Below are positions 9,757 to 58,062 of a DNA stretch of 64,000 bases, piece by piece; within the stretch, counting starts at the first letter, position 1; each line of letters opens with the position of its first letter. The stretch covers positions 1,111-65,110 of the forward strand of contig JAJZIX010000003.1 of NCBI GenBank assembly GCA_021810345.1. Direction: 5' to 3'. The notes below the pieces were generated by a model. It was not told where the DNA came from and did not search any database. It worked only from the letters and a program-made list of their open reading frames with translations. The stretch is from Nanobdellota archaeon. Its GTDB lineage: Archaea > Nanobdellota > Nanobdellia > Parvarchaeales > Parvarchaeaceae. The translations under genes were made by a program, and so were the position numbers.

Positions 9757-9758
9757 TG

Positions 9759-11281: not shown

Positions 11282-11289
11282 TCCACTTA

Positions 11290-13525: not shown

Positions 13526-13547
13526 CTGAGTACTTTATTAATGAATT

Positions 13548-13631: not shown

Positions 13632-13650
13632 AGTTTATCCTATCTAAGAA

Positions 13651-13983
13651 TCAGATATCGTCCAATATACTTTTGCGCGAAACCCTTAGCCCCTCGAATA
13701 TCACTCCTGCCCTTGACAGCTTCATCCTTTTCTGCGCAGAAGTCCTGCTGTTGCTTTTGCCATTGATGGTATATCCACCGACCGACCCATCTGATCTGAC
13801 CACTCTGAAGCAGGGGTATTTTTCCGGATGGTCGTTTCTGCTAAGTATGAAGCCGACGTATCTCGGGCTGATCCCCAGTTTTCTGGATATGGCCCCGTAG
13901 GTCACTACTTTGCCATTTGGTATTTTTCTCAGTATTCTGTAAACATCTTTGTATGGATCTTTACTTTTTTTCGCCATATACAC
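13651..13983 (-). CDS. single-domain MGMT/Atl-like methylated-DNA-binding protein
   Basis: 110 aa. YGAISRKLGISPRYVGFILSRN helix-turn-helix followed by PCFRVV, where the canonical motif is PCHRV and Atl proteins have PWHRV. No N-terminal MGMT domain. Confidence 0.75.
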   Translation of the reverse strand: MYMAKKSKDPYKDVYRILRKIPNGKVVTYGAISRKLGISPRYVGFILSRNDHPEKYPCFRVVRSDGSVGGYTINGKSNSRTSAQKRMKLSRAGVIFEGLRVSRKSILDDI

Positions 13984-14656
13984 TGTCTAGGACCTCCTGC
14001 TCTGTTAGAAGATCCTGTTTTCCCAATTTTAGGAACCAGTTGTTTATGTTATTTATATCCCTTGTAAGATATTCCTTCGTCAAGCTGGTAAGCTTGAGTG
14101 ACTGTGAGAAGTCTATAAGATATGGCTTGGAATCAAAATTCAGGATATTGTATGGGCTCAGGTCGCCGTGTATCATGCCACTTTTTCCCATCTTTATTAT
14201 GAAGCCGATTATGTCCTTATACCATTCTTCCAGGTCAAAATTCGAATCCTTTATAGCAGAGGCAGCCGGCACACTATTGAAGCCGACGAATCCCATTACT
14301 ATCAGATTTTTGTAGAGCCCTATTGGTTTTGGCGCCCTGACACCAGAGTTGAAAGCCCTTTCAAGCGATTTGTATTCGTACCTGGTCCAATCATCTATTG
14401 TGTTGAGGAATCCACCGCTTTTTATGCCCCTAAGGGACAGGTATGAGGGTATCTCCTTAAATGACTGGATGTTGTGCCTGTGTATCTTCACAGCCACTTC
14501 ATACCCATGCACATCCTTGCTGTAGAAAACATAAGATTCCTTTCCAGTACCTATGGGCCCTATTAGCTCTGTTATCAGCCCGTCACTAGTGAGCTTCACT
14601 ATGTTCCTTAGTGTATGCTGGTCGAATACGTGCAAAAATGTCTTATTTTCTTGCAT
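13961..14656 (-). CDS. RIO-type serine protein kinase (Rio1-like)
   Basis: [25 protein letters not shown] and IDFSQS motifs. 231 aa with no wHTH domain. Confidence 0.85.
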
Positions 14657-25800: not shown

Positions 25801-28729
25801 TGTCAGGAGATGCAAAACATGACACCGAAGAGCCTATTAAGGATCTTCCACTTAATGCATAGTTTCCTGTTCCATTCGACACGGCTATGTTAGTTGTTAT
25901 ATTTGCGAGTATAGCATTTTGGGTTAAGTTTGAAGGCAGAACCGAAAAATTAAAATTGTCTGTGTATATGCTTATATTTGAGAAGGGTGATTCGCTGAAA
26001 TTTACAGTGTAGCCTACTAGATATTGCCATGGAGGAGATGGACTGGGGCTGCTAGGATTTAGAATTTCATTGTTATGATTGGGGAAATTAAATTCTATCA
26101 AGTGTGGTTCCGCAGATTGAAGCAGTGGATTAACTTGTATATTGCCCATAGACGTAACCGGGTTTGCGTTATCGCCCCATGAAACATTAAAGAGATTTCC
26201 GAAATAGAATGCTGCCTTATATTTTCCCTGGAGAAGCTCTTTAAACAAAGCTAATGGAACTTCAACAGTAAATGTAGCCGTGCCATTTGGCACAATCAAT
26301 GGAACGCCCGTATTATCCGAACTAGAATGGACAAGAAATGTATTTGAAGTCCTAGTTACATTATCTGGTCCGCCAGTGCCTGGTCTGTAAAACCACATAC
26401 CCAGCAATGAGTTGTTATAAGGACCATTTAAGTAGGAAGGAGACGCTGAGAACAGAGATTCTATAGGGATTGGATTCATAGGATACCCTTCTTTATAGGT
26501 GTACATATTCGTGTCTAAGGAAGAGTTGTAGGTTAGCCCTATAACACCGGTCATGTCTTGCTGCCTCATACCGTTAAGCATTTGACTGAAGTAAGAGTAA
26601 TCTTGCTCTAAAGAATTTGTCGGGGATGAATAAAACATCTGACTGACATTTGTGTCGCGGAACAGCGCTATGAAGTATGGATTTGTTATGTTTGTTGTAC
26701 CTACATTTTTGATTGTAATAACAATCGGAACACTGGAGGAGTTTGAGTTAAATGCAGGACAGTTGTATATTTTCTGCATAAATACTGTCGAGTCTGCAGT
26801 CGGATTAGACATATTCTTTTCGCCAAGAAAATCACCGCAGTAGCTGCCCCCATTATTAGCTACGTACAAAGATCTTATCCATGCGTCAGTTATATTGCGT
26901 ACTATCCCAGAAGGAGTACAGGCGATATTGCTTATGAAAATGCCTTGTTCAAAATTCAGATCGTTCCCGCCGCCTTGTATAAAGCAATTGCTGCTGTTGT
27001 AGAAAGAGTTACATAAACCAGCTGCGACCGTGTAATTCTCCGCGGCTGTAGGTGCTATGACCCGGGTATAGCTAGGAGAGGTGTAGACACCTGTATTTGT
27101 ATTGAAACTCTCACCATAGAAACAAAAACTATCCAAAGCTTTTATTGTGAAATTATTAAGCGGATCAAACGAATCAAACCCGGGGATGGCTGGCTGATTG
27201 GCTAAGTTACTTAAAGGCAAATAATAAGAAGACCAAGTTCTTTGATAAGAAATTGGATTTATACTCTGCGGGTCCTCGAATGTACAGTTACTACCGACAT
27301 TGCCATTCGACTTGATGCATATTGGAAAGAATCCTCCGGTTGCAAAGCTTAGATGACTATATTGTACTGGCAGACTGAATTGTGAGAATGTTGCCTGCAG
27401 TGAGGGATAATAAAATGCCTGCAAAGCCGGTAAAGTATATGAATTTGATTGGTACATTGGGATTTGCTGTCGGGAACGATTATATTGAACTAAGGTGCTA
27501 CTGAGTCCAGGACCAACTTCAATAGCTGGTATAGAGACTAGTGCTGCTATGCGCATGATTTCGGACATTGGCACCTTATTCTGGAATGTTGTATAACCAC
27601 TCGATATTGATGTATTGCTTGAAAAAAGTATAACATTTCCAGTTTCAGGGCTCTTCCCAAAATATGAAGCATTAACTTCTGTGTAGAAAGGCACAACTTG
27701 ATTAAGGTAGTTTAGATAGCCCTTATTACCTGACGGGAATGGTGCATAATTTGAAGTCGGCATGCCAAAATTGAAATTAGGTGCTATTCTTTGTACCTGG
27801 TATGCGTAGGGTGATTCAAAGAAGCCATCTGCAACGATTGATGGAATCGGGACGCTATTAATCCATAGGGCCGTGCTAGAGAGCACTCCTTGTATGTATA
27901 ATTCGCCAATACCATCCTCTGTGTTTGAAGAAAGAAACACCGACGGCATAAATCCAGTTAAAGTTGGCATGCTCGACACTGTTTGACCTGGTAGAAGAAC
28001 ATACGTATCGGGGAAAGTCGAACCGCATGAAACAGACGGTATTACTAATGTGCTCTTACCATGGATTGGATAACCAGAACCGAAGTTTATCCCCTCATAC
28101 GTGTTGTTTACAGCATAATAATAGCCAGTTAAGCTACCTCCATAAGCTTTAATGACAGAATTGTTAAAAACTACCAGATTCTGGTATGGATTTTCTTTGC
28201 TTGGGAAAGCAAAAAGCAAAGGCTCGAACGAGCCAGAAATCAGATTCGGGAAGGAAGCAGTAAATATATTTGTGTTTGGTTCACTCTGTGGAAATCCTAA
28301 ATATCCAACGAAGTCTGATATATTTTGTATGTTACTTGATCCACCGCAGAGATAAAGTAAGGGTCCGCTGAGTAAATTAGTGAAAAAGTTAGAATTAACA
28401 CATATGTGAGGAGCTGTTATGGCGGTTAGTGTCTCGCATTCATACTCCTTCGTTGTAGTGTTTAAGACGACTTTGCCAGGATAAAACTTGGAGTTAAACC
28501 AAAAATTACTGTTGACTGCATCGGTATTGTTTACTATCTCATTTTGTGCGACCAATGAGGTTGATGAAGCCGATGACTGGAAGGCATTTTGGTCGTTTTG
28601 TGACAAGCCGCCTAAAGCCGATGATGCAGTTGCTGTAGTCGTATGAGAAGGACTGCCGAATTGATGCAAGGATATCAGCACTGCTAACACTGCTATCAAA
28701 GCGAGCATCAGGTATTCTAATTTCCTCAT
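19898..28729 (-). CDS. giant secreted, sequon-rich surface protein (2943 aa) with C-terminal tandem beta-sandwich-like repeats
   Basis: Uninterrupted 8.8-kb ORF. N-terminal Sec-type signal MRKLEYLMLALIAVLAVLISL. Very high S/T/N/G/Y content, many N-x-S/T sequons, Pro-rich linkers (KSPPPPPS, KSPPPSSLPSS), and four roughly 95-aa C-terminal repeats. No C-terminal TM segment. Confidence 0.85.
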   Translation of the reverse strand: MRKLEYLMLALIAVLAVLISLHQFGSPSHTTTATASSALGGLSQNDQNAFQSSASSTSLVAQNEIVNNTDAVNSNFWFNSKFYPGKVVLNTTTKEYECETLTAITAPHICVNSNFFTNLLSGPLLYLCGGSSNIQNISDFVGYLGFPQSEPNTNIFTASFPNLISGSFEPLLFAFPSKENPYQNLVVFNNSVIKAYGGSLTGYYYAVNNTYEGINFGSGYPIHGKSTLVIPSVSCGSTFPDTYVLLPGQTVSSMPTLTGFMPSVFLSSNTEDGIGELYIQGVLSSTALWINSVPIPSIVADGFFESPYAYQVQRIAPNFNFGMPTSNYAPFPSGNKGYLNYLNQVVPFYTEVNASYFGKSPETGNVILFSSNTSISSGYTTFQNKVPMSEIMRIAALVSIPAIEVGPGLSSTLVQYNRSRQQIPMYQSNSYTLPALQAFYYPSLQATFSQFSLPVQYSHLSFATGGFFPICIKSNGNVGSNCTFEDPQSINPISYQRTWSSYYLPLSNLANQPAIPGFDSFDPLNNFTIKALDSFCFYGESFNTNTGVYTSPSYTRVIAPTAAENYTVAAGLCNSFYNSSNCFIQGGGNDLNFEQGIFISNIACTPSGIVRNITDAWIRSLYVANNGGSYCGDFLGEKNMSNPTADSTVFMQKIYNCPAFNSNSSSVPIVITIKNVGTTNITNPYFIALFRDTNVSQMFYSSPTNSLEQDYSYFSQMLNGMRQQDMTGVIGLTYNSSLDTNMYTYKEGYPMNPIPIESLFSASPSYLNGPYNNSLLGMWFYRPGTGGPDNVTRTSNTFLVHSSSDNTGVPLIVPNGTATFTVEVPLALFKELLQGKYKAAFYFGNLFNVSWGDNANPVTSMGNIQVNPLLQSAEPHLIEFNFPNHNNEILNPSSPSPSPPWQYLVGYTVNFSESPFSNISIYTDNFNFSVLPSNLTQNAILANITTNIAVSNGTGNYALSGRSLIGSSVSCFASPDNINDFSVFWSTRAVSPPNLAYAVHDFYKSNSAIDNLLITRWRGLVFMPYSDQAVLSVNNLPSYKTSEVSFMLQKPAINSNSTSYSKEAFAYFDSGGLSSVFSNLSSFYKVFSSTFVPAPAVLSSSSYGFTLTANNLIGNASILRVVGSDSFANFSKFANSPITINFSGMPHCLFSESTNSAGVFSSNSTLFRCFDGIKVNQSIMTITSNGPFQVDLYNNSIFNASNTSQHGTYLVSGNFTLSTPSNGVFSTTLNISKPLTNGFSLLFKPEPRTIILKNSNVYLYNINGSPFSCNIINDYNPYLHNIGASEIAPGEYHLTNGAILCNLTSPFSAIRAVFMNATNNEYLGSGDIFLQASIQYMPSNSLYITYNGAPLNSQEVNLSGPSSDSCDVGRIVVTNGILNYSGNCQLANDTLSFASLSNKISGALSITIGPTVPAYSDGAFIAIQPIALADNPSSAAEITIPSSITSNIPITFSLPNLYNSCNSIKVLSNFSYPYSEVPFQTISDANGNCYYAFIGNSAGSPYTLFINTPSAPAYPDSWFNYSETNYNVQFNANGYSGNLLSMCSNGIGPCISGFKFNGSGVGSLLVNNVSASSPSISNPVSGPVMDCFSITYSALQQAIFQYSGFGDIHYSTNKAYQEAVPTEAVTSNYCFFDNSPVITDLLQFSGNPLSFNVSNDLFTNFSTAETGSGEVYSVPRPIDVGYSGYNNVTVLSSSYINYTLSVPNTVSYSCANYTLTQMPLANSSEPIQASDFTSGVESPYCVVNESRTYTENAGLTSSNNVFATTSGETIGFMIKPGNITGPNGPVFYDSCQFIRNETVDKAQLFVNGTWTNFNPNNPGESAAVNRIANLSGYPLLVSPSNNVYINSCPVNSTIVAYSMCTNPNQQITPRGGSYSGIEALPASGGTLTTGFNLSLGGGCFIGNLNGVSYSCAPTDGKLSYSNSNDKSSSSSSVSESQYLYNSSSAPTTPLKISFSCSGTANITTNSKSANYDLSCSYPSSSTSSNSCSAAVSVTKVSSGEYSISGICSVSLSGSQKLNSDTIEISNFNINSEQSETTGISSNFLCGNLTNVISSDNVPAGWSWSAFTTTHTTNLNGIPEVGGCEAGRSTYSELAPFINTTIINDTTGAFYQTYSCASGYSGSVLACSTPVSIKSSITTGKCVSNLTYEKTITTYKSENGTTLGGLPKGCKPFSAQNYSSPTLTTDCQAYGNQVQASTNSSFILQYDNYSTISSASYSRFNTINERHGGGKIKSPPPPPSTQALKVTDPSGFGVGLALVGQPVSLNIYIPNGYNSYITKDSYITSVSVSQKEISNMFTNIYPTNLLLSNSLSNALFKSSLYSYDMLNLLLLQNPYFGIFGMPGFVNGSTIDYAMNIFSGGTSNNCVSSQLQGNYGIFKLGEGELCSGNQLPKGYENGVYLSLGSLNEGLHAVQFYSVAENQNQSQPTINVADSVGTALNLNSACSNGNSRVFTMKYPNGGPFVNITSDENCNPINNELYGYVVNCMYQSPGNKTFSVSSQYYLAYNLPTLWNISYTILVSPKAYGVVPVPVYQVGNSVGSILSLYPPASTQFSETGLPNGYTWKVIYDNIPESSSRPTIDYTLESGTYSFSIPTLSNSSSVPDCTSTYTPSPSSGALKTGYSVSVIFLASTQCTSVFSETGLPNSTSNTTSTVNSTTPPGGGLTTNKTKSPPPSSLPSSQQSDPLEYQWTVNYNGFNESSSTPHITFTAPSGSYVFKVYNITVLASSPGCSYEYVASPSSSSLTAGDNESISFSEKYVCVPVNTIFDEQNLPSGASWDVTYNGTTLSSTSSSITFSTLYGSYQYTGYSVVAVNSSNWQCTYTPSPSSSVLTADNTYTITFSSSSCSLPLKTTFTQNSGVSPWSVTYDGDKKTSSGSTIVFNVYPGTYSFSVATEIITTGEQCSLSTNVKGTYYYTYTPSPSSGSLKAGGSQSVSYKLTSTTCSA

Positions 28730-28782
28730 GTAGCCTCACTCTCAAAACTCAATACTGTTTTATTAACTTTTTCCATGTTTAA

Positions 28783-31700
28783 TTAAGGCCAGGTACTGTA
28801 CTTGTTCACCCCTATTATAGTTAAATTTGGATAAATTGGATTGTACTTATTGTACATTGTAGCCAGATTAAATGCCGGAGGATACGGCGAATAGGTTGCG
28901 TTTAAAAGCGTAATTCCAAATGATGGTTTTACAGTTATACAAGCAAATTGAGCGTAATATTTGGACAAAGTGGCATTGTAAATGTAAGGCGGTTGCGGTT
29001 CTAGGTTCGTGAGATTAAGACCGACTAATGAATAGGTAGGAGAGTATTTGTGCTGCTTTGAAGGATAGATAAAATTAAATTTTCCGCTTTGTTGGGTTGA
29101 GTAAAAGAAGAAGGGGAATACTTCTGTCCCGTTGCTTGAGTAAGGTCCAGATTGACTTACACCACTACCATATACTATGTATATTGAAGCTGGAAGTGTT
29201 TTTGTGAGGTTTATCCAAAGTATTGCTCCATTTGCAATGGGGGTCTGGTTCCACCAGTAAAGCTCTAATACCTTGTTAGGGTAAACAGCAAAGATCTCAA
29301 GGTCATTTGAACTCAAAGCTGTCAGATTGAAATTGTTATTTAGAACCAGCTTTTCCTGATATGCATAGTTCAGAGTAGTTGGACTGTTTATTAAGATTTG
29401 GTTGTAATACGTATTCTGATCACTCTGCAGTTTAAATGAAAAGTTCAAGCTTGGGTTTAGGGTGCTTGCAGGCAGACTCTGTGATTCGCTGCTAATCGCG
29501 TTGTAATCTGGTATGTAGTTAGAAATAAAGAAGTAATTAAGAAGGTCAGATGAAGTCTTCGAGCCAGTAGACGCCCCTATCAGGTTTATTTGGCCCCCTG
29601 ACAACAACTGTAGATCGCTGGATGAGTAGTAGGATTGGTTCACCCCGTTTACTTCAAATGTCAGATTACATGAAGCCGGAGCGGTGCAGAACCTATTGAC
29701 CTGTATATTTTCCTGCTGTTTACTTGCTGCGTTAGAAGCTGATTGGCTCAGAACGGAAAGCCCGCTGTTTACCGAATAGTTGTATATTCCGTTGAAGCCG
29801 CCCGTCTCAGACGACAATTTTACTGCTGTAAACTGAGATTGCAAGTTTTGGTTCTTGCTCAGTAAAATGCTGAAGGACGGTGACGGTCCACCTAATTCAA
29901 CCCCTGCGTTTATAGACAGGTTTTCAGGCAGTGTCAAGCTACCATTTAACAGTGCGAACGTCCAGTTATTATATGTTCCGTAAGGGCCCGAAGACTTAAC
30001 TCCACCCCCGTAGATCAAAAGCAATTTATAGAGCTTACCATTGTAAGTATTACCTTGAGTGGTGAAATTTTCATTGTCAACCAAAAGAGAAGACGGGCAG
30101 GAGTTTCCACTTGTTATCCAGTTTTGGTATGAGAATTCCTGTGTCTTATAGTAAGGACAATAGTAGTAAATGCTGCCGGATTGGTTCACAGATGTACAGC
30201 CTTCACCAGAAGGTGCGCCGCTGTTTGAACTTATATATTGCTCCGTTGTCCGATTTGTCGTCTCGAGGCCGGCTATGCATGTTGTGTTAATGAAGGGCTT
30301 TGCGACTATAGGCGCGCAGTTCAAATAAGTCGTATTGGCAACTAATGCAAGGTCAAATCCCGGGTATCCTGTAGTGTAAGGTGAGTTCTGAATCCCACAC
30401 AGCTCTGTTGGGGTCAAGCTTAAGTTGTTTTGATACCCGAAATCTAAGGATATTGGGATACCGAGAACCTCCTCCGAGTAATTATTATCTATGACCGGGC
30501 CCCTCGAAGAAAAGGAGTAGTTCACAGAAGCTTTGTAGTTCTTATAATTGGTGCACAAACTGGATTCGCTTGTATTTATAGATAGGTTAAGTACATTCAC
30601 ATCAAAGGCGCTGCCTGAAAGAAAGCTAAGCTCCATTGGTATCTCTTTATCCAAGAGGTCCTGTATATTTCCAGACAGAGTCTGTGAAAGTAGCTGTCTG
30701 CAGAACTGCAGATCGGAAGAGTTCTGGCTGCAGTTGTAGATGTAAGTCCCATAATACGGCTCTTTTACGCGGCTGAGCTCATTAAGCAGGTAATTTGTAC
30801 CCTGTGGAGAGCCCATAGCCAGTATAAGTGATGAGTACCAATCATACTTGGGCTGACCGTTTACAGAGACACTTTTAAGGTTGACCCCCCCTATGACATT
30901 TGAAATGTAATTGTCTATTTCGTACTGCGCAAAGCCCCTTATGCTACTGCTACCTAGAGGGAACGTTTCATTCACAAATGCAGTGCTTAGAGAAAGCAGC
31001 GTACTCAGGTAATTTGTGTTTGATACATATCCAGACAAACTTAAGCAATTCTCCAGGTTGAACTGTACCTCATTATAGGACAGACATATTTCCGGATTAT
31101 ACAGAGGAAATGCGGAAAAAGAGACGTATAAATTCTTGTTGTTAGGGAACAAAAGATTCTCGTTCGAGGCGACTTCAAAGCTGCTGAGAATGTATTTGTA
31201 GAAGACAAATTTTGGCTGGAGCGATACTACAGCGTAGTTTACGGGCGATATGGTAAAAAACCCAGTCACATCCGAGGATATTACAAAATTGTAGTCTGTA
31301 CCATCAAAGGTGAAAGCGGTGTTGTTGGACAGCTGGATCTGTGGAGTTATTCCAGCCACTGTGTCTTCTGACATGGCACCTTTCAGAGTGTACACATTTT
31401 GGTTTATTATGGGAGTCATCTCAAAGCTATAAATTCCATTAGTTTCGTTGCTGTATACTATTGCTTCGTCTCCATTCGGGAAGGTTACCACAACATATTG
31501 TGATGAAGGAGATATATGGGAGCCACTGAAAAATGAATTCACTGCAGAAGGGTGGCTGAGGACTCCTGAGACAACATCCTGCTCGCCAGCAAACACAAAT
31601 TTCTTTTCACCCATAAGGAAATCTTGCCCGGCTATTCCACTGAAAACTGGTGTGCAGGACGAGCTAGAATGCTCGCATACGGTGTAGTTTTGAGATGACC

Positions 31701-46012: not shown

Positions 46013-47740
46013 ATGAGATTCTACGAGCTAAGCGAGTATTTCTCAAAGCTTGAGAGTACCACAAAAAGACTGGAGATGTTCGATATACTATCGGAGGCTT
46101 TCTCCAAGTCAAGCGGCGATGAAATCGCAAAGGTTGTCTATTTAATGGAGGGGGAGCTTCTCCCTGCGTTCTTTGGGGTGCAATTCGGAGTAGCCGACAA
46201 AATGGTAGAGAAAGCAATAGCCGAAGCCTACGGCCCAGATACCAAAAAAGTAGAATCTGAGTACAAAAAGTTGGGGGATCTCGGTAAGGTCGCAGAGAAT
46301 GAGAACAAAAACGGCAGCGGCTCTAGTCTTACAGTATCAGAGGTGTACAATGAACTGTTTTCAATAACAAAAATATCTGGTGAAGGCAGTGTGGAAGCGA
46401 AGATAACTGCCTTGTCAAATATCTTCAAAAAAGCATCCAAGCTTGAGTCTAGGTACATAGCGAGATTTGTCCTTGGGAGATTAAGACTCGGAGTCGGCGA
46501 GGCAACAATAATGGAGGCACTTTCAAAGGCGAAGACGGGCAAACGCGAATTTAAGAAGGAACTCGAGAAAGCATTCAATTTCTGCTCTGATTTGGGATAC
46601 GTGGCAGAGGTTTTCTACAAAAACGGTGAGGAAAGCATAAAAAGATTTAAAGTCCAGGTAATGAGGCCTATCCGACCGGCCCTTGCAGAAAGGCTCAGCT
46701 CTGCAAAGGAAATAATAGAGAAACTAGGCAAATGCGCCCTCGACCAGAAATTCGACGGCTTTAGGGCACAGGTTCATAAAAAAGGAAGCGAAGTGAAAGT
46801 CTTTTCCAGGAACTTAGAGGACATAACAAACTTCATGCCTGAGATAGTAGCAGAAATAAGAAAAATAAAGCATGACAGGATAATATTCGACAGTGAATCA
46901 TTGACGTATGATGAGGATACAAACACGCTTTACCCCTTCCAGATAACCATACAGAGAAAAAGAAAGCACAATGTCCTTGAAACATCGGAGAAATACCCGC
47001 TTAGGCTATTTGTATTCGATATAATGCTTTTGGATGACGAAAGCCTTGTGGACAAGCCATACATAGAGCGTAGGAAGATAATAGAGAAGCTGTTTCCAGA
47101 GGATGCAATAATATCCAGATCGAAGATAATAATAACCGACAGCGAGAAAGAATTTGAAAAATTCTTTGATGATACAGTAAGCAGCGGCCTTGAAGGAGTC
47201 GTGGCTAAAAGACTTGACGGACACTACGCTGCAGGCGCAAGGAACTTCAACTGGATAAAGATCAAAAGATCGTACAAATCAAGACTGAATGATACCATTG
47301 ATCTGGTGATACTAGGCTACTTCAAAGGCAGAGGAGCAAGAGCAGACCTTGGCATTGGAGCTGTTTTGGCGGGAGTATACGACGATAAAGACGACAGCTT
47401 TAAGACAATCTCTAAAGTGGGTTCAGGCTTTTCAGAAGAACAGTTCAGATCTCTAAAGAAAATGCTTGATGATATAAAGGTAGACCATAAGCCTGCCCGG
47501 GTGGATTCAATAATGGTGCCAGATATCTGGGCCGAGCCTAAGTATGTTATAACCGTGAAAGCGGATGAGATAACTCGTAGCCCTATGCACACCGCCGGAA
47601 TGGAAAATGAAGTCGGGTACGCTTTGAGGTTCCCACGTGCCGTTTCATTTATAAGGGAAGACAAGAACGCGAACGATGCCAACACGGTAAAAGAAATAGA
47701 AGAGATGTTCAAGGAACAGAAGAATCTAAAAGTAAGCTAA
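46013..47740 (+). CDS. lig: ATP-dependent DNA ligase
   Basis: 575 aa with adenylation motif I KFDGFRAQVHK and OB and DNA-binding domains. Confidence 0.95.
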   Translation: MRFYELSEYFSKLESTTKRLEMFDILSEAFSKSSGDEIAKVVYLMEGELLPAFFGVQFGVADKMVEKAIAEAYGPDTKKVESEYKKLGDLGKVAENENKNGSGSSLTVSEVYNELFSITKISGEGSVEAKITALSNIFKKASKLESRYIARFVLGRLRLGVGEATIMEALSKAKTGKREFKKELEKAFNFCSDLGYVAEVFYKNGEESIKRFKVQVMRPIRPALAERLSSAKEIIEKLGKCALDQKFDGFRAQVHKKGSEVKVFSRNLEDITNFMPEIVAEIRKIKHDRIIFDSESLTYDEDTNTLYPFQITIQRKRKHNVLETSEKYPLRLFVFDIMLLDDESLVDKPYIERRKIIEKLFPEDAIISRSKIIITDSEKEFEKFFDDTVSSGLEGVVAKRLDGHYAAGARNFNWIKIKRSYKSRLNDTIDLVILGYFKGRGARADLGIGAVLAGVYDDKDDSFKTISKVGSGFSEEQFRSLKKMLDDIKVDHKPARVDSIMVPDIWAEPKYVITVKADEITRSPMHTAGMENEVGYALRFPRAVSFIREDKNANDANTVKEIEEMFKEQKNLKVS

Positions 47741-47760: not shown

Positions 47761-48945
47761 TTATTTGTAGTTGCTGGTGAAGAAGGCCCCATCATCAACT
47801 AAATTAAACCCATGGCCACTGTAATCTTTCAAAGTCCCATTAAGTGGCCAAAATGCAACCAATCCATTCGAAATAAGCGGGCCGCCGGTTATACCTTCAT
47901 TATAAATACTCATTAATTCCGGGGCAGATAGGGAAGAGTTATAAAGCTGCAAGTCAGTCAGATCTCCTATTAATCCAAAATCGGAGCAGTAGAAGGAGGC
48001 GCCAACTACTATGTATCCATTACTAGATCTTGAATTACCAGAGTCACCAACAACTGACTGAGTCGATCCTAGCTGAAAAAGACCATAAGTACTATTTATA
48101 GACGCGGCAAAGAAGTACCAGCTGTTATTGAAAACGTTTACGGAGAAAGAATTTGAGTGTATATCATTATAACAAGTATGTATTACTTCTTGCGGTGACG
48201 GTGGAGTAAATATGAACGCAGCATAACGACCATAGAGACCAAAGGAAAATAGCCCATCCGCCATCCATTGACCTGTATCCCCCGGTCCATTCTCTTTTGG
48301 CATCTTGACCCAGCCAGTTATTGTAAATGTGAAGTTATTTACGTTTGCTAAACCAGTAGAAGCCGGCAGAGTATAAGACATGTAGCTATTGTCGTTAGAT
48401 GCTGATGCTGAGATATTATATGGAGCTGCAAAGCTAGCAACAAATGGTTGTAATATTGTAGAAGTAGTAGTCCCTGCTACTGTTCCAGTGGATTGATAAG
48501 GCCCAGAGAAAACCTGGCCGGGCTCTGTGTAGTTTACCGTCACGGCCAGAGAATAGCGCGAGCCCGCTGCCGGACAGACGTTTGGAACTGAGAATATATA
48601 ACTCGAAGTAGGCTGGATTATCGGATTTGGGTCCACGGTTGAATTTGGCTTGAATGTGGATATTTGACCGGTGGAGGATTTTGCTGTGACGCTGGTGATA
48701 TTTATTAGGTAACCCGTCGAGTCACCTAAACTTATCCTCAATACCCCGTTGGCTGTGCACTCTCCCGTTACACTGCCTAAATTGGAGAAACCGGTTACTG
48801 TTGAGGACAATGAGGATGCCGGAGAAAATATCCCTAGACTGTACAATACACCTGCGACTATCACAATGACCAGTATAGCCCAGCCATACGTCATCATGTA
48901 CTCTAATGCTGATTGCGACTTTATTGACATACCTGACCTCTTCAA
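47761..48945 (-). CDS. class III signal peptide protein with a LamG-like jelly-roll domain
   Basis: N-terminus MKRSGMSIKS|QSALEYMMTYGWAILVIVIVAGV shows the QxxxE class-III signature followed by a hydrophobic helix. FTFTITGWVK, WYFFAASINS and FYCSDFGLIGDLTDLQLYNSSLSAPELMSIY match the LamG_3 core. It ends with a second LamG-start motif. Confidence 0.7.
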   Translation of the reverse strand: MKRSGMSIKSQSALEYMMTYGWAILVIVIVAGVLYSLGIFSPASSLSSTVTGFSNLGSVTGECTANGVLRISLGDSTGYLINITSVTAKSSTGQISTFKPNSTVDPNPIIQPTSSYIFSVPNVCPAAGSRYSLAVTVNYTEPGQVFSGPYQSTGTVAGTTTSTILQPFVASFAAPYNISASASNDNSYMSYTLPASTGLANVNNFTFTITGWVKMPKENGPGDTGQWMADGLFSFGLYGRYAAFIFTPPSPQEVIHTCYNDIHSNSFSVNVFNNSWYFFAASINSTYGLFQLGSTQSVVGDSGNSRSSNGYIVVGASFYCSDFGLIGDLTDLQLYNSSLSAPELMSIYNEGITGGPLISNGLVAFWPLNGTLKDYSGHGFNLVDDGAFFTSNYK

Positions 48946-49001
48946 TTGGGTTATTACAATTATACAGATTTATTCTATTTAAGACTAATAGCGGAGTCTA
49001 C

Positions 49002-50054
49002 TCATTTTATTATGGGATTAGGTATCTCCTGCTCGGGGTTGGCATTTATGAACAGTATGCTGCTTACACCCGATGTAAGCTCAAGGGAAGTAAACGAGCC
49101 ACCATAAATAGCAAGAAGCGGATCCTGGTTTGAGTTTGAAATTGGGAAAGTCGAACCGCCACAGATTATAGGGGCGCACATTATGCTACCGTTCTTTATG
49201 TATCCACTTTTCACTGCAGGGACGATGTTTTTGCACTGCTGTGATAGTATTGAAAGGCCCGATGAAACGCTTGATATCGGATCGGCCGAAAAGTTAATCT
49301 GGTATTCAACCGCCACACCATTTACGGAAATAACCTGTACGGTTACATTGGAGACGTTAGCCTCACAAGGCGATGTTATGCTACTAGAATGGAACTGCGG
49401 GGTTATTGAATAAGCCCTCTCACAGTTAGCCAGGCCATTGAAATAAACGTTCACTTCGGAGGATGAATTCGCATATTGTATTAAGGAGAAAGTGTACTGT
49501 GTAACGTTTATAGGGGTGGCAGACACCAGTACAAGACTAAGGCTGCCGGATGAGGTATTGGCTTCTATCGCTGGAACTGCCAGCTTATTGATTGGAGAAG
49601 ACGCAGAGAGCTCTGCTGTCGGAGGATTATTCGGGCCCAAGACAAAGTAAGATACACCTGATATTTTCTGAGAGTAATAGTATTGATTGCCTGAGGAGAT
49701 CCCAAGACCAGATGGATTGCTGACTGTGGCGTAACAGAGGTCATAGTTATTTTCCAGGTTTGTACTCACAGGCGTGCTATTTGAGAAAATTGATGGGTTT
49801 GCAGACAAAACCTGATTACACGACGGAGAATCGTAAATTTGGAAAATAAGTGCTGTGGGAGTGTTGAAATTGATGTTTGACATTGTCTGCGGCGCAGTAC
49901 ATGCGCTTTGGGCGGACGAAGTGAATGAGTTATAGAAATCTGCAGACGTTTTCACTGATATGAAAGGAAGCAGCACATATATTATAACCACTATGAGTAT
50001 TATGGCTATCATTACAACCATCCCTATCATCTCGAGCGTATAAGTTACTCCCAT
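49002..50054 (-). CDS. secreted S/T-rich protein with an N-terminal hydrophobic anchor (about 350 aa)
   Basis: ATG at 50054 is 1 nt after the upstream stop (TGAtATG). The ORF track begins at a TTG at 50063. N-terminus MGVTYTLEMIGMVVMIAIILIVVIIYVLL. Confidence 0.6.
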   Translation of the reverse strand: MGVTYTLEMIGMVVMIAIILIVVIIYVLLPFISVKTSADFYNSFTSSAQSACTAPQTMSNINFNTPTALIFQIYDSPSCNQVLSANPSIFSNSTPVSTNLENNYDLCYATVSNPSGLGISSGNQYYYSQKISGVSYFVLGPNNPPTAELSASSPINKLAVPAIEANTSSGSLSLVLVSATPINVTQYTFSLIQYANSSSEVNVYFNGLANCERAYSITPQFHSSSITSPCEANVSNVTVQVISVNGVAVEYQINFSADPISSVSSGLSILSQQCKNIVPAVKSGYIKNGSIMCAPIICGGSTFPISNSNQDPLLAIYGGSFTSLELTSGVSSILFINANPEQEIPNPIIK

Positions 50055-50055
50055 A

Positions 50056-50874
50056 TCAACCAATCGAGAAGCTACACACTATCGACGCGCCACCGTGATA
50101 GACGCAGCTTTGGTATGAAATTTGGCCTGGATTGCCGTATAGGAAGGCCATTGGGTTGGAATAGCATCCATTCGTTGTGCCTGCGCATGAGGGACCGCTA
50201 ACGCTTATGAAATAGGTGCTGTTACCGCTGGCTATAGGGACGCACTGCAAGCTAGTAATGTACGCGGATGGAGTAGACGTGCCATAAGCTGTTACTGCGT
50301 TGAAAAACTCATCACATGACTGGCCCAGTGTTGTGGCGATATCTGCTGGGTTTTCATAATAAGACAGTGTTCCAGCTGATCCATTTATTCCTGCCGCAAG
50401 ATCTGAGGACGGCGAGTTAAGCTGTGCAAAGTTTGTAAACCAGTATGGAAACGAAGCGCCGCCCGGAGTGGAAGGCAGGTAATTCCAGACTGAATCCTGC
50501 TTTATCGCGGAGGGATTATAACTGCCTGAGCACAGAAAGTACTCTCCAGCGAGAGAATTCGGGTTCTGCGGCAGGCTAAGCACGGTTATTCTCGAAAGCT
50601 GATCAAGATAGCTTATGCACTGGCTATTGCCGTAAAATTGCGCCATGAACTGGTCATTCGACAGCGATGGTGAAGCCGGCGCAACCACAAGCGACGACCC
50701 GCTCTTGATTGCCAGACTGACCTGCTCAACGTAGGCGGAAAGGCTCTGCGCTACAGCCTTTACTGAGTGCACACCATATATGAAGATATAAGCTACTATT
50801 ATGACGACAGGAATCAACACAATTATTGTTATGATTATGCCCAGCAAGGCGGTCACGCCTTTCCTGTTTACCAT
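50056..50874 (-). CDS. pilin-like secreted protein (272 aa) with a class III-type signal
   Basis: MVNRKG|VTALLGIIITIIVLIPVVIIVAYIF. Cys-rich and S/T-rich mature region. Confidence 0.65.
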   Translation of the reverse strand: MVNRKGVTALLGIIITIIVLIPVVIIVAYIFIYGVHSVKAVAQSLSAYVEQVSLAIKSGSSLVVAPASPSLSNDQFMAQFYGNSQCISYLDQLSRITVLSLPQNPNSLAGEYFLCSGSYNPSAIKQDSVWNYLPSTPGGASFPYWFTNFAQLNSPSSDLAAGINGSAGTLSYYENPADIATTLGQSCDEFFNAVTAYGTSTPSAYITSLQCVPIASGNSTYFISVSGPSCAGTTNGCYSNPMAFLYGNPGQISYQSCVYHGGASIVCSFSIG

Positions 50875-50895: not shown

Positions 50896-51054
50896 TTATT
50901 TATTCCTTGCCCACTTGAACTTTCTCTGGTCTTTCTTCATTATCATGTAGGTCATGCACCTTCTGCTACAGAAATTATAGACTGTACCGTCGTTCTTCGC
51001 GTACATTATCCCAGTGCCACGCCTTATCTCAGAACCACAAAAGCTGCATTTCAT
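50896..51054 (-). CDS. rpl24e: 50S ribosomal protein L24e
   Basis: Found by hand, not in the ORF track. 52 aa, MKCSFCGSEIRRGTGIMYAKNDGTVYNFCSRRCMTYMIMKKDQRKFKWARNK, a C4 zinc ribbon typical of L24e. Lies 2 nt after rps28e. Confidence 0.85.
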   Translation of the reverse strand: MKCSFCGSEIRRGTGIMYAKNDGTVYNFCSRRCMTYMIMKKDQRKFKWARNK

Positions 51055-51056
51055 AT

Positions 51057-51323
51057 CTACTTTATCGGAAGAGCCTCCATCTCAGTCTCCCTAAGAACTA
51101 GTATGTCTCCTACCACCGTTGGACCTCTAACGTTCCTTCTTATTATCTTGTCCTTGTCAAACCCCGAGAGGACCTTGCACTTCACTTGCGTGACTTCGCC
51201 AGCTACGCCCTGTCTGCCTACAATCTCGATTACCTCGGCTGGAAAACCTTCCGGGTTCTGAGGCTGAGTTTTTGTAGTCTGCTTGCTGGGAGAGTCCCTC
51301 TTTGGTTTGTTCTGTTGCTGCAT
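51057..51323 (-). CDS. rps28e: 30S ribosomal protein S28e
   Basis: [26 protein letters not shown]...[19 protein letters not shown] matches S28e. Confidence 0.9.
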
Positions 51324-51327
51324 AAAA

Positions 51328-51696
51328 TCACTTTAGCTTGCTTATGAGCTCCTCGAGTGCGTGGGCCTCTTCACCTGCATTTGTTATAGCTATGGCGGCA
51401 GAGCCGACACTCATTCCCGCGGCTTTTCCGAGCTCAATCCTGCTTTTCACCTGTATGGAAGGAACTCCTTTATCCTTCGACAGAAGCGGCAAGTGCATTA
51501 TTATCTCCTTTGGCGAAACATCTGCTGCATACACCACCAGCTTGGCCTGAGACCTCTCAAGCGCCTTTGTTACTTCATTCACGCCCTTCTTGAATGAACC
51601 GCCCTTGGCCCTTATTTTTTCAAGCAAAGAATAGACCTGTGAATCCAGATCCTTTTCAACTTTCGCTTCATCTACCATATCAGCTACCTCCTCCAA
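51328..51696 (-). CDS. rpl7ae: 50S ribosomal protein L7Ae
   Basis: [37 protein letters not shown]...[24 protein letters not shown] Shine-Dalgarno sequence lies upstream. Confidence 0.9.
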
Positions 51697-53390: not shown

Positions 53391-55427
53391 TTGTATATGA
53401 AAAACGATTACGATGAAGTGATTTCCTCTTTTGTGAATAGAAAGTTAAAAGAGCAGATCAAGAGGGCAGTGGCCCTTAAGAAGTCGTCGATAATCGTAGA
53501 CTTTAAGGATGTAGACGATTTCTCCCCGGAGTTGGGAGACTATCTGATAAAAAGTCCGGAAGAGGCGGTAGAATCGATAAAATACTTCATAAACGAGACA
53601 GAAATTCCCTTCAGGGGGACCGGGCTTGAGGTCAGGGTAAAAAACCTGCCGAGCACTGCCCAGATCCTTATAAGTGAGATCAGGAGCAAGCATATAGGAA
53701 AACTTATACAGACCACAGGGTTGATAAAAGTAGCTGTCAGCGTCAAACCTGTCGCAAAATCAATAGACTTTGAATGCCAAAGCTGCGGACACGTTATAAA
53801 GGTAGAACAGAAGGAAAGGACAACCAAGCAGCCAGCAATATGCCCAAACTGCGGCAAAAAAGGACATTTCAAGGTAATAAACAAGGAGCTAATTGACACC
53901 CAGAAGATAATACTGGAAGAAGCACCCGAAGACCTTGTCGGCGGGGCACAGCCTGAGCACATAAATGTCATACTAAAGGGGGATTTAGTGGACCCGAAAT
54001 TTGAGAAAAACATAATACCTGGCAACAAAGTGGTGGTCTCTGGCATTGTCAACGAGGAACCTATAATATATCCGAGCGGAAAGAAGTCTAACACCTCGGA
54101 TGTGTTTATATCCGCCTCATACATCGAAGCGCTGGAGCAGGGATACGAAGAGATAGAAATATCCAAAGAAGAAGAGATGATAATAAAAGAACTTGCAAGC
54201 GACAAGCTCATCTACAGCAAATTTCGCGGCTCTATAGCCCCAAACATATTCGGCTATGACTACATAAAGGACGCGGTGGTCCTCCAGCTTTTTGGTGGAG
54301 TCAGGAAGGAATCCGGCGACAAATCAAGCGCAATAAGGGGGGACCTGCACATACTACTGGTCGGAGACCCCGGAGTTTCGAAAAGTACACTCCTGAAGTA
54401 TGTAAGCACAATAGCTCCAAAGGCCAGGTACGTCACCGGAACCGGGTCAAGCGCTGCTGGGCTTACTGCAACAATACTGAAAGATGAAGCGACAAGAAGC
54501 TACATACTCGAAGCAGGCGCCATGCCTTTGACAAACAAGGGTCTTCTGGCGATAGACGAGATAGACAAGATGAACAAGGAAGACAGGGTTGCGCTGCACG
54601 AGGCGCTTGAGCAGCAGACAATAACGATTTCAAAAGCCAATATACATGCAACGCTGTCAGCACAGACAAGCGTACTTGCAGCTGCAAATCCAAAGCTTGG
54701 TAGATTCAATGCCTTTGATGTGATAGCAGCACAGATAGAGCTGCCGCCAACACTGATAAACAGGTTTGATCTAATATTTATAATGAGGGACAGGCCCAAC
54801 GAAGAAAACGACAAAAGGATAGCCAAAAGGATCCTAGAAGCGAATAAAGACATAAACAAGAACAAGCCAGAGATACCAACGACAATAATGAAGAAGTATA
54901 TAGCTTACGCAAAGCAGAACGTAAAGCCGACGCTGTCAGAAGAGGCGATGAAAGTTATAGAAGACTTTTACCTCAAGCTTAGATCGCAGTATTCCACTGA
55001 AGGAGAGGAAGTAAAGCCGATACCAATATCCGCTAGGCAACTGGAAGCGCTTGTCAGGATGACGGAGGCTTCGGCTAAAGTGAGGCTATCTGATATGGCA
55101 GTTATTGAGGATGCGAAACGCGCAGTGGACTTGATGATGTCCTACCTTGGTGAAGTAGGGGTGGACAAAAGCACTGGCGAGCTTGACATAGACAGGGTCA
55201 TAACGGGTATCTCATCCTCGCAGAGGGGCATGATACTATCGGTCAAATCAATAATAAAAACAGAGATAGAGGCGCTGCCAAGCGGAGCGATGCTGCCAAT
55301 AACAAAAGTCTATGAGGACGCGGAGAAAAGTGGTGTAGACAAGGATAAAGTCGACACTGCGATATCGGTATTGAAGAGGGAGGGTGAAATATTCGAGCCT
55401 AAATTCGGATTCATAAAGCTGGTATGA
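53391..55427 (+). CDS. mcm: MCM replicative helicase (no intein)
   Basis: 678 aa with a C4 zinc motif, Walker A GDPGVSKS, Walker B LAIDEIDKM and an arginine finger region. Uninterrupted. Confidence 0.95.
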   Translation: MYMKNDYDEVISSFVNRKLKEQIKRAVALKKSSIIVDFKDVDDFSPELGDYLIKSPEEAVESIKYFINETEIPFRGTGLEVRVKNLPSTAQILISEIRSKHIGKLIQTTGLIKVAVSVKPVAKSIDFECQSCGHVIKVEQKERTTKQPAICPNCGKKGHFKVINKELIDTQKIILEEAPEDLVGGAQPEHINVILKGDLVDPKFEKNIIPGNKVVVSGIVNEEPIIYPSGKKSNTSDVFISASYIEALEQGYEEIEISKEEEMIIKELASDKLIYSKFRGSIAPNIFGYDYIKDAVVLQLFGGVRKESGDKSSAIRGDLHILLVGDPGVSKSTLLKYVSTIAPKARYVTGTGSSAAGLTATILKDEATRSYILEAGAMPLTNKGLLAIDEIDKMNKEDRVALHEALEQQTITISKANIHATLSAQTSVLAAANPKLGRFNAFDVIAAQIELPPTLINRFDLIFIMRDRPNEENDKRIAKRILEANKDINKNKPEIPTTIMKKYIAYAKQNVKPTLSEEAMKVIEDFYLKLRSQYSTEGEEVKPIPISARQLEALVRMTEASAKVRLSDMAVIEDAKRAVDLMMSYLGEVGVDKSTGELDIDRVITGISSSQRGMILSVKSIIKTEIEALPSGAMLPITKVYEDAEKSGVDKDKVDTAISVLKREGEIFEPKFGFIKLV

Positions 55428-56546: not shown

Positions 56547-56843
56547 ATGACGGGAGCGCCGTACTTTAGATACCCAAAGAAGGATGAAGTTGTGGGGTAC
56601 ATCATGCAGCTGCTCGGATTCGGCAGGATGTATGTGAAATGCTCCGACGGTAAGATAAGGCTGTGCCAGGTAAAGGGGAGTCTGAGCAGGTATCTCTGGA
56701 TAAGCGAAGGAGATCTTGTTCTAGTAAAGCCATGGGAAGTGGAAAAAGACAAAAAGGGCGATGTGCTCTACAAGTATGACCGAGGCAGCTGGGCTGACCT
56801 TAAAGCAAAAGGATTCTTTGATGACGGCATCTTCAGCAGCTAG
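56547..56843 (+). CDS. eif1a: translation initiation factor aIF-1A
   Basis: VVGYIMQLLGFGRMYVKCSDGKIRLCQVKGSLSRYLWISEGDLVLVKPWE matches the eIF-1A S1-like fold. Confidence 0.85.
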   Translation: MTGAPYFRYPKKDEVVGYIMQLLGFGRMYVKCSDGKIRLCQVKGSLSRYLWISEGDLVLVKPWEVEKDKKGDVLYKYDRGSWADLKAKGFFDDGIFSS

Positions 56844-57307
56844 CGCTGCGTCGCTGACATTATACCTGTGGAAACCAAAAGAGAGTATTCTGGTAGGTTT
56901 TGCGTGTAGTTGACCGTTCCAATGTAGGACATTACGATTGAAAAAGGCAGAATTAGGCTGCCTTTGTTACATGAAGGACTAGAGTAATAGAAGCTGCGGC
57001 TGCTGCCAGCTGGAACGACGGCACCCTGCGGCACAGCAAGGTCCACTTTGGTGCCATTGTAAAGCTTAAGCGTTGCCGAGTAGATTCCTATCTGTGAGCT
57101 TGTCGGGTTGACAACATCCATCTGTGAACCGGCGACAGAGCAATTGAAGCTGATAGATGGGAGCTGTGAATGGACACTTGTCTCCAGCAGGCCAGATGAA
57201 TATCCTATAACAACAAATAGCAATGACAGTATAAGAATGAATATCACTACTAACAGTATTACCCCGCCGACAGCTTCAAACTTTCGGTTTTTGCTGGCCA
57301 TGAGCAT
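56840..57307 (-). CDS. small secreted or signal-anchored S-rich protein (155 aa)
   Basis: N-terminus MLMASKNRKFEAVGGVILLVVIFILILSLLFVVIG. Located directly downstream of rpoD. Confidence 0.55.
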   Translation of the reverse strand: MLMASKNRKFEAVGGVILLVVIFILILSLLFVVIGYSSGLLETSVHSQLPSISFNCSVAGSQMDVVNPTSSQIGIYSATLKLYNGTKVDLAVPQGAVVPAGSSRSFYYSSPSCNKGSLILPFSIVMSYIGTVNYTQNLPEYSLLVSTGIMSATQR

Positions 57308-57312: not shown

Positions 57313-58062
57313 TCAGACGTTAGCTGAGATTTCAGACACTTCATCGCTTAGAGCATCGATTGCCTCGGACATTATCTCCTTAGGCTCGAGCTGGCCCCAG
57401 CTTTCAACGACAAAAACAACCTTATCCGGATCGGACGATATTTTTATTACATCCTCCCCGGCAAAATCCTCGCACGCTTTGCACAATATGCATTCCTGTA
57501 GCTTACCTTTCTTAACTGACAGAGAGTCTCCCGAGCCTTCTAGTATGTTGACTGGACACAAGGCGGCTATTTTTGATGCGTTCTTGACGCTACCGCTCTT
57601 TATTGAGATCTGAGGATAAAAATGGTAAAACGCGTGACCAGGGCTGAATTTTGCATGCTCGGAGCCATTGCCAAAAACTGCCTTCGCTTCAAGCTCTACA
57701 GCCTCTCCCTCCCTAAGGTTTATTATTAGCATGTCGCCGTAAACCGGTATTACATCCTTGTCTGATGGGACAAGATCCGAGGCGTGAACCGCTTTTGGCC
57801 CCATCTCCTTAAGCTTGAAAGTGAACTCCTTCTTGCTTTTCTTCAGCTCCGGAAAAGTCTTTAAAGGTATCAGTCCAAGCCTAGACGCAAGCACTTCGTC
57901 GTACATTGTACTGGTATTCTTGTACACAGTGACATCTTCTATTGCGAGAGTTTCCACGCTGTTTATTATAGCCCTTCTTAGGGCATTAACAAGCGACAGC
58001 TTGAAGCCAGACAGCACGAATGATACTTTGCCATTCTCTTGCTTGATAATAGAAGCTTCCAT
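57313..58062 (-). CDS. rpoD: DNA-directed RNA polymerase subunit D (Rpo3) with a 4-Cys ferredoxin-like insert
   Basis: 249 aa. Conserved RpoD N-terminus plus ALCPVN...CILCKAC. Confidence 0.9.
   Translation of the reverse strand: MEASIIKQENGKVSFVLSGFKLSLVNALRRAIINSVETLAIEDVTVYKNTSTMYDEVLASRLGLIPLKTFPELKKSKKEFTFKLKEMGPKAVHASDLVPSDKDVIPVYGDMLIINLREGEAVELEAKAVFGNGSEHAKFSPGHAFYHFYPQISIKSGSVKNASKIAALCPVNILEGSGDSLSVKKGKLQECILCKACEDFAGEDVIKISSDPDKVVFVVESWGQLEPKEIMSEAIDALSDEVSEISANV

Follow-up and report, generated by a model that had tools for sequence, protein, structure and literature searches.

A predicted modular type IV pilin with a LamG head next to an orphan gene pair of Parvarchaeales in a DPANN archaeal genome fragment

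The DNA stretch analysed here (the window) comprises 64,000 nucleotides of contig JAJZIX010000003.1 from a Nanobdellota archaeon and carries, between positions 47761 and 50874, three minus-strand genes flanked by an ATP-dependent DNA ligase gene (46013..47740, plus strand) on one side and the genes of the ribosomal proteins L24e (50896..51054), S28e (51057..51323) and L7Ae (51328..51696; all minus strand) on the other. This arrangement of three open reading frames (ORFs) had been described in an earlier note on the same DNA; it was borne out by our analysis, and the N-termini quoted there were exact. As called, the ORFs span 47761..48945 (394 aa, TTG start), 49002..50063 (353 aa, TTG) and 50056..50874 (272 aa, ATG). 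The first most likely starts at the ATG at 48930, with GAGGT 7 nt upstream, and then encodes 389 aa (MSIKS/QSALEY...), and the second most likely at the ATG at 50054, which gives 350 aa (MGVTYTLEM...). Products identical to the 389-, 350- and 272-aa proteins are present in public assemblies, all under the name 'hypothetical protein' (a Candidatus Parvarchaeota metagenome-assembled genome (MAG), M1441_00420-00430). Because homologs were found for all three products at E 1e-19 to 1e-249, the ORFs are real genes and not chance ORFs, and their source is an ARMAN-type DPANN archaeon. We propose, with a probability of about 0.7, that the interval consists of two independent units, namely the gene of a modular type IV pilin with a LamG head (hereafter LamG pilin) and a coupled pair of orphan genes specific to Parvarchaeales. 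The features are as follows; related loci are designated by L numbers throughout.

47761..48930, minus strand: coding sequence of the predicted modular type IV pilin with LamG head, 389 aa, stop codon at 47761-47763 (ORF, public 389-aa product, 841 homologs, AlphaFold model)
48916..48930, minus strand: leader MSIKS with the predicted prepilin-peptidase cut between S5 and Q6 (comparison of homolog leaders)
48826..48915, minus strand: hydrophobic alpha-1 helix at the predicted mature N-terminus, QSALEYMMTYGWAILVIVIVAGVLYSLGIF, with Glu at +5 (identity among homologs and helix in the model)
48469..48801, minus strand: pilin beta-sandwich, residues 44-154, with invariant Cys58 and Cys119 (strands of the model, alignment)
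47776..48441, minus strand: LamG/concanavalin-A-like jelly-roll, residues 164-385, including the conserved C-terminal strand WPLNGTLKDYSG (PF13385, family profile, Foldseek)
48931..49001, minus strand: intergenic region 5' of the pilin gene with the TATA-like A/T-rich elements TTAAATAG and TATAATTG and GAGGT before the ATG (reading of the sequence)
49002..50054, minus strand: coding sequence of the Cys-rich 350-aa orphan protein (the '353-aa' protein), with an N-terminal anchor, without a cleavable leader and with a conserved Glu at the helix start (ORF, homologs, public product)
50056..50874, minus strand: coding sequence of the 272-aa orphan protein, MVNRKG/VTALL..., with invariant Gly6, a hydrophobic stretch of 30 residues and 8 invariant Cys (ORF, alignment)
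50896..51696, minus strand: L7Ae-S28e-L24e ribosomal protein operon, 21 nt upstream of the 272-aa gene and co-directional with it (ORFs, synteny)

The view that the LamG protein is a class III prepilin-type product was supported by a comparison of the leaders in its best 120 homolog clusters. In 114 of them the motif Q[SA]A[LM]EY is located near the N-terminus, preceded by a leader of 4-47 aa that is not conserved in sequence and ends in a basic and a small residue. Position -2 is basic in 107 of these 114 homologs (K in 58, R in 45 and H in 4), and position -1 is occupied by Ser in 103, Gly in 6 and Ala in 5. The 22 residues from the Gln onward are near-invariant (QSALEYMMTYGWAILIIVIVA), with Q6, S7, A8, L9, E10, Y11, Y15, G16, W17 and A18 being invariant in the homologs. 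In the window copy, MSIK-S/QSALEYMMTYGWAILVIVIVAGVLY, a polar leader with a basic and a small residue precedes a hydrophobic stretch of at least 20 residues as in other class III signals, and cleavage is predicted between the two parts. This is the architecture of type IV pilins: a variable leader with a basic-small pair at its end and, immediately behind it, an invariant hydrophobic helix that has Glu at +5. We take the Gln at +1 to be reminiscent of the Epd/EppA class. The bacterial N-methylation motif IPR012902 gave no Pfam or NCBIfam model match in the LamG pilin; because its motif is of the archaeal Q+1 type, the protein represents an archaeal analogue outside the InterPro-defined set of modular pilins. 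Within the window, the QSALEY signature is restricted to this gene.

Two further parts of the window carry N-termini of a related kind. A second, different class-III-like motif (KRGQ) is present in two proteins of a 16-kb operon (19898-36144, minus strand), one of 1155 aa (...NKRGQ/ANFIVSLGMII) and one of 194 aa (...SKRGQ/VTIVDLVLVPIV). The 194-aa protein has a weak PilX_N match (E 0.0027), and the 2943-, 1155-, 846- and 277-aa proteins of the operon have no Pfam match. An ORF of 155 aa at 56840-57307 (minus strand), which the earlier note had counted among the prepilin candidates, lies beside rpoD (57313-58062); it has an N-terminal transmembrane helix and no Pfam match, and is syntenic in relatives (L003 1432-1866, 144 aa; L008 195-653, 152 aa).

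The AlphaFold model of the LamG pilin, calculated from an alignment of 71 homologs (A3) that also underlies the identity values given below, reached a predicted local distance difference test score (pLDDT) of 85.7 and a predicted template modelling score (pTM) of 0.80. It is composed of a helix (residues 8-31), an eight-stranded beta-sandwich (44-154; pLDDT 90-96 in the strands and 79-96 across the domain), a Thr/Ser-rich linker (approximately 155-163) and a jelly-roll (164-385). The N-terminal helix and the beta-rich globular domain together have the 'lollipop' shape of pilins, and the whole protein shows a modular layout of two well-separated domains, the N-terminal one a pilin module and the C-terminal one, attached by a short linker, of a kind not peculiar to pilus biology.

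The LamG domain had been postulated from the sequence, with searches by hidden Markov model (HMM) and structure named as the check; the family HMM, the family profile and the fold support it, and only the direct Pfam scan of the window copy failed to do so. Because scanning the three proteins directly against Pfam and NCBIfam yielded no usable match, the domain was identified via homologs, family profile and structure. Of the 71 aligned homologs, 68 match the Laminin_G_3 model PF13385 (lowest E 5.9e-22); in P0008, for instance, the match comprises residues 193-347 and takes in positions 6-149 of the 151 in the model. Compared with the PDB, the family profile matched domain 4 of AbnA (5hon_A, 6.6e-10) and 4qvs_A (1.1e-9), as well as the tetanus/botulinum Hc-N domain, pentraxins and the trans-sialidase lectin domain. 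Foldseek searches of the PDB retrieved CRP (1lj7; target TM-score 0.70-0.72, E 8e-6) and agrin LG3 (1pz8; TM-score 0.59), with further matches to PTX3, neurexin LNS2, AbnA domain 4 and the Hc-N domain of BoNT. The module of the window protein has the two-sheet jelly-roll that LamG, pentraxin and ConA-like domains share. A conserved C-terminal segment, LVAFWPLNGTLKDYSG (residues approximately 354-385, 47776-47870), which includes the strand WPLNGTLKDYSG, aligns to the N-terminal strand of the canonical LamG_3 protein 4qvs, which hints that the strand order of the family's jelly-roll may be permuted.

The two domains differ in their conservation. In A3, the homologs share on average 91% pairwise identity in the helix and 52% in the pilin beta domain, compared with 25% in the LamG core and 45% in the C-terminal strands. 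Given this low identity of the core, no residues of a ligand-binding site, which in such domains often includes Ca2+ at the rim of the sandwich, were recognizable. In the related locus L008, which has three tandem copies, the second and the third paralog (b and c) are 94% identical in the N-terminal pilin module (N-module) and 31% in LamG. The third copy is orthologous to the window gene; these two genes are 94% identical in the N-module and 88% in LamG, with omega values of 0.04 and 0.17, respectively. The LamG head is less constrained than the N-module. The synonymous divergence (dS) between the orthologs (window gene versus L008 11425-12609 and the L012 gene) differs more than two-fold, with 0.88 in the N-module versus 0.39 in LamG, a contrast that is only suggestive of a mosaic history of the window gene. 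In addition, the region 48931..49001 is unrelated to the regions upstream of the orthologous and paralogous L008 copies. To account for both observations, paralogs may have exchanged their N-modules, or an array of three genes may have been reduced to a single gene by a deletion. We also considered whether the window gene and its ortholog had recombined or exchanged modules, and set this aside, as a sliding-window comparison displayed no sharp breakpoint.

The pilin gene of the window is an unremarkable representative of a family with abundant database entries, which are annotated only as 'LamG domain-containing' or 'hypothetical'. For the window protein, 841 homologs were retrieved. The 160-aa N-module alone had 3,066 representative clusters as matches at E<=1e-3, and 316 when the limit was set to E<=1e-10, the proteins being approximately 145 to more than 1,100 aa long; at least 595 matches were obtained in species-representative genomes. 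The taxa among the matches listed are MAGs labelled Parvarchaeota, 'Nanoarchaeota', Woesearchaeota, Aenigmarchaeota, Micrarchaeota and also Marsarchaeota. A census of complete ORFs, covering 80 loci from the scan of species-representative genomes and the loci from earlier searches, yielded 105 ORFs with the signature, of which 31 are plain pilins, 43 carry LamG and 31 other C-terminal modules (DUF2341, YNCE/NHL-type beta-propellers and unknown ones). The plain pilins have 142-241 residues after the predicted cleavage site. Individual Parvarchaeales MAGs of approximately 1 Mb contain at least 8-10 genes of this family, a number that is a lower bound, in addition to one or two plain pilins. The genomic settings vary: at the site between the 353-aa gene and the DNA ligase gene, L008 has its three tandem LamG pilins, and in L007 a single copy is situated amid housekeeping genes. 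L006 has a variable island (4473-15732) in which genes of AbiEii, HEPN/nucleotidyltransferase and AAA_14-DUF4143 proteins lie interspersed among five paralogs of the LamG pilin, so that adhesin-like pilins are mixed with toxin-antitoxin or abortive-infection modules.

A link to pilus machinery is seen at the level of the family. In L064 (Woesearchaeota), a plain QSALEY-type pilin gene directly follows the genes of a T2SSE-T2SSF-T2SSF operon, of which it is the last, and in the Parvarchaeales MAG L030 a T2SSE ATPase gene lies approximately 7 kb from a LamG pilin. A census of type IV filaments (TFF; preprint, 2026) reported 'system 1', which is Epd-like and has two platform genes, in DPANN archaea, and with an ATPase, two T2SSF genes and a pilin the L064 operon matches this organisation. 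The predicted mature LamG pilin shares the Gln at +1 and the Glu at +5 with Epd-type pili, such as those of Methanococcus maripaludis, whose Epd pilins are cut by EppA. In contrast to the pilins of these systems, it has no class III or pilin match in Pfam or NCBIfam, and the window gene is located outside such an operon. In Parvarchaeales, plain QSALEY pilin genes of L049 (3713-9247) and L062 (2625-8117) are located beside a conserved six-gene operon, in divergent orientation. This operon was ruled out as pilus machinery, as it consists of SecD/SecF homologs and four proteins without a Pfam match.

Modular pilins with lectin modules are known from bacteria (PMC8179133, PMC9934059). PilC of Streptococcus sanguinis, which has a ConA-like lectin, and the IPR012902+PF13385 architecture (Raynaud 2021, PMC8179133; Shahin 2023, PMC9934059) resemble the LamG pilin in their class III signal, small pilin module, short linker and module of the ConA/LamG superfamily. 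The role predicted here from sequence and model, the binding of ligands or glycans from a pilus, is likewise the one proposed for the bacterial proteins. In contrast to these, the LamG pilin is archaeal, it has a beta-sandwich pilin module of the Q+1 'QSALEY' type, mostly preceded by Ser at -1, it lacks the IPR012902 motif, and it belongs to a multi-copy repertoire of at least 8-10 genes per genome with hypervariable heads. What is added to the known modular lectin pilins is the archaeal setting, the Ser at -1, the organisation as a repertoire and the orphan pair. An expansion of LamG proteins in DPANN archaea, including genomic islands and some copies tied to type IV pilus loci, has been described together with a proposed role in host interaction (Golyshina et al. 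2017, PMC5498576). The jelly-roll proteins considered here are similarly expanded and in part located in islands. As far as the accessible part of that publication goes, its LamG proteins are not described as pilins, whereas here LamG is fused to a class III pilin module that also occurs alone or with other heads.

We suggest the following role for the LamG pilin. A class III (prepilin) peptidase would remove the leader MSIKS before Gln6, and the invariant hydrophobic helix QSALEYMMTYGW... would become part of the core of a type IV pilus of the Epd-like 'system 1' kind, the shaft of which would consist mainly of plain pilins of approximately 150 aa with the same helix. The pilin beta-sandwich would act as a stalk and the LamG jelly-roll would be displayed outward as a ligand-binding head, whose ligands are probably glycans, most plausibly those of the host surface. 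The paralogs in Parvarchaeales and other DPANN archaea would keep the stalk and vary or swap the head (LamG, DUF2341 or beta-propeller), and the assembly ATPase, the platform protein and the peptidase would be encoded elsewhere in the genome. The most likely role of such a structure is the attachment of episymbionts to host cells or other surfaces. This model fits the LamG expansion mentioned above (PMC5498576) as well as the pili-like fibres and Velcro-like contacts that have been reported between ARMAN cells and Thermoplasmatales (PMC4110969).

Alternatively, the class III signal could serve processing and a membrane-proximal, bindosome-like assembly, comparable to that of the sugar-binding proteins of Sulfolobus, so that the proteins would form a surface lectin layer capturing glycans or nutrients rather than pilus adhesins. 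The best similarity of the 160-aa N-module to a curated family is indeed to NCBIfam BasC of Sulfolobales (bindosome assembly; E 1.2e-3, nearly full length), and a plain relative has a similarly near-full-length, sub-threshold match to UpsA of the UV-inducible pilus (E 3.3e-4). Both families share the class III signal and a small beta-rich domain with the LamG pilin. The many paralogs with differing heads and the lack of adjacent pilus machinery would also suit a lectin layer, and widespread binding proteins processed by the class III signal peptidase (SPIII) have been proposed in the 2026 TFF preprint. However, the scores are far under the curated cut-offs (18.8 versus 260 bits for BasC), the residues at the cleavage site differ, and neither BasC nor UpsA contains LamG. 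Moreover, the same N-module occurs as a plain pilin of approximately 150 aa right behind T2SSE-T2SSF-T2SSF, LamG is a lectin and adhesion fold and not the solute-binding fold of ABC transporters, and pili-like fibres are present on ARMAN-type cells (PMC4110969). We thus consider a bindosome-like layer unlikely.

The second unit, the pair of the 272-aa and the 353-aa gene, shows a markedly different distribution. Both families are tiny, with 12 and 10 clusters, and were found in Parvarchaeota only, where the pair is single-copy. The order (L7Ae-)S28e-L24e-272-353 is kept in six genomes (window, L001, L003, L004, L008 and L037), and the gap between L24e and the 272-aa gene is 20-29 nt in the five loci measured (window, L001, L003, L004 and L008). 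L037 (11158-13443) belongs to a much more divergent Parvarchaeota MAG in which S28e-L24e-272-353 is nevertheless kept, at 47% identity for the 272-aa and 30% for the 353-aa protein. The two genes are translationally coupled, their junction being TGAtATG (stop, one nt, ATG) in four of five loci and a 6-nt spacer in L008. To judge from its position, the pair is probably co-transcribed with L7Ae-S28e-L24e. Downstream of it, an ABC transporter gene or a small ORF and no LamG gene is found in L001, L003 and L004, and in L037 the sole LamG-type gene lies approximately 8 kb away on the opposite strand. Because the pair occurs without a downstream LamG gene in these four of the six genomes, we regard the interval as two units and not as one locus.

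The proteins of the pair bear little resemblance to pilins beyond their N-terminal helices. In the 272-aa family (n=13 sequences), an invariant Gly6 after K/R is followed by [I/V/S][S/T/V] and a hydrophobic stretch, and there are eight invariant Cys, compared with seven in the 353-aa family. From this sequence pattern the 272-aa protein may be cleaved after Gly6, and its description as a prepilin candidate holds insofar as [K/R]G before a long hydrophobic stretch is found family-wide; as to pilin homology or a pilin fold, neither was detected. For the 353-aa protein the notion of prepilin processing had to be given up. Members of its family begin directly with the helix (MDLLLEG..., in the window MGVTYTLEM...), with a conserved Glu, and because in addition four of five loci lack an in-frame upstream start, there is no leader to cleave. 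When aligned with the QSALEY pilin module by hhalign, both families match in the transmembrane helix only. Neither protein has a match in Pfam or NCBIfam, a Pfam scan of all members of the 353-aa family was also empty, and profile searches of the PDB with both families gave no match. A weak hhalign match between the two families (E 1e-3, 22% probability) and a weak match of the 353-family HMM to the 272-homolog of L037 (E 1.5e-4) hint at a distant paralogy. The proposed glycosylation was not supported either, since sequon counts in all three proteins do not exceed those of composition-matched shuffles. Both products of the pair would be N-terminally membrane-anchored and disulfide-rich, and most likely they form a constitutive heteromeric component of the envelope or surface that is specific to Parvarchaeales. 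ARMAN-type organisms have been reported to lack an S-layer (PMC4110969). The strictly conserved link to the L7Ae-S28e-L24e operon suggests that this component is probably abundant.

According to the earlier note, all three genes would form a single prepilin locus. In such a locus the 272-aa and 353-aa proteins could, for example, act as minor pilins that nucleate the LamG pilin or carry it at the tip, in the manner of PilA-PilB-PilC of Streptococcus sanguinis. There is a precedent for a lectin pilin in a tip complex in that species (PMC9934059), and the three genes lie side by side in the same orientation in the window, L008 and the MAG with M1441_00420-00430. The invariant [K/R]G before the helix of the 272-aa family would agree with such a role, and the 353-aa family with its conserved Glu near the helix start and no leader is reminiscent of a tip subunit. 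In contrast, the synteny data weaken this reading. While the pair is single-copy and fixed behind the ribosomal protein genes, the 8-10 LamG pilins per genome are mostly located elsewhere, scattered or in arrays, and the LamG gene is missing after the pair in the four genomes named above. The pilin gene of the window furthermore has an upstream region of its own, 71 nt long, A/T-rich and separate from the pair, which by its sequence probably contains its own promoter (48931..49001); a scan for sigma-70 promoters and terminators was set aside as not applicable to archaea. As the pair and the pilin module also share no profile similarity and the model of the 272-aa protein has no match to a pilin-like fold, a three-gene prepilin locus appears decidedly improbable.

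That the LamG pilin is the major subunit of 'bottle-brush' filaments sheathed in lectin heads is hardly probable at all: the nearest relatives of its pilin module are overwhelmingly LamG fusions, with plain pilins more distant at 33-57% identity, and no plain pilin is present in the window or in several MAG fragments, but plain pilins with an alpha-1 helix identical to that of LamG pilins do occur in the Parvarchaeales MAGs L044, L049, L051 and L061/L062, 8-10 differing heads per genome are better suited to interchangeable minor subunits, and the tip is considered the main place where a pilus tolerates bulky modules (PMC8179133).

Several observations weigh against the division into a modular pilin and an envelope pair as proposed here. 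With respect to the pilin, the strict [GA] rule of the FlaFind pattern at -1 excludes the mostly-Ser position of the LamG pilins. No class III or pilin model of Pfam matched, either with N-terminal peptides at E<=10 or with the full protein at E<=1, and none of the curated HMMs for pilins or class III signals (Pfam Class_IIIsignal and Pilin_N, NCBIfam pilin families) scored above threshold. The window copy itself has no PF13385 match even at E<=1, thus falling below the Pfam gathering threshold, and since omega of the LamG head is 0.17 and below 1, positive selection on the head is not supported. Among ORFs of at least 150 aa in the window, no pilus ATPase, platform protein or prepilin peptidase was recognized by Pfam or synteny, and LamG-pilin genes are usually located away from pilus machinery. 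A regular expression for the A24 peptidase motif had no match in 1.38 Mb of DPANN fragments, a negative result that is uninformative because the genomes are partial. With respect to the pair, a basic residue and Gly before a transmembrane helix are equally compatible with a plain signal anchor, and co-transcription with the ribosomal protein genes is deduced from spacing alone. The AlphaFold model of the 272-aa protein is only moderate (best pLDDT 72.7; 44-61 for the other four models), and at this quality it has no fold match in the PDB (best Foldseek E 1.1).

Some features outside the interval are recorded here for completeness. The MCM helicase of the window (53391-55427, 678 aa) is intein-free, and that of the related Parvarchaeum genomes L004 and L005 (2028-5246) is 1072 aa long with an intein (Intein_splicing and LAGLIDADG_3). 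Two plus-strand ORFs at 3908-4786 (292 aa) and 12146-13525 (459 aa) have no Pfam family at E<=1e-3, the former being syntenic with an ORF of L007 that has 288 aa and is situated ahead of the complex I genes there. The literature was searched for ARMAN locus tags without a match.

How DPANN archaea recognise and hold their hosts is an open question (e.g. PMC11329633), and the family of lectin-headed pilins described here is a concrete and testable candidate for host attachment. As a tentative and rather doubtful extension, DPANN episymbionts may devote approximately 1% of their tiny genomes to a cassette-like pilin repertoire, with a conserved stalk, hypervariable heads, tandem arrays and toxin-antitoxin-rich islands, which would act as a determinant of host range like the receptor-binding-protein cassettes of phages, and the 272/353 pair would then represent a pilin-like core structure that is new, in part leaderless and restricted to Parvarchaeales. 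The signature by which the family can be searched, [K/R]-[S/G/A]/QSALEY[M/L]MTYGWAIL, is very simple and would enable the systematic mining of host-specificity determinants in DPANN metagenomes. With the LamG pilin, the concept of the modular pilin would be extended from bacteria to archaea.

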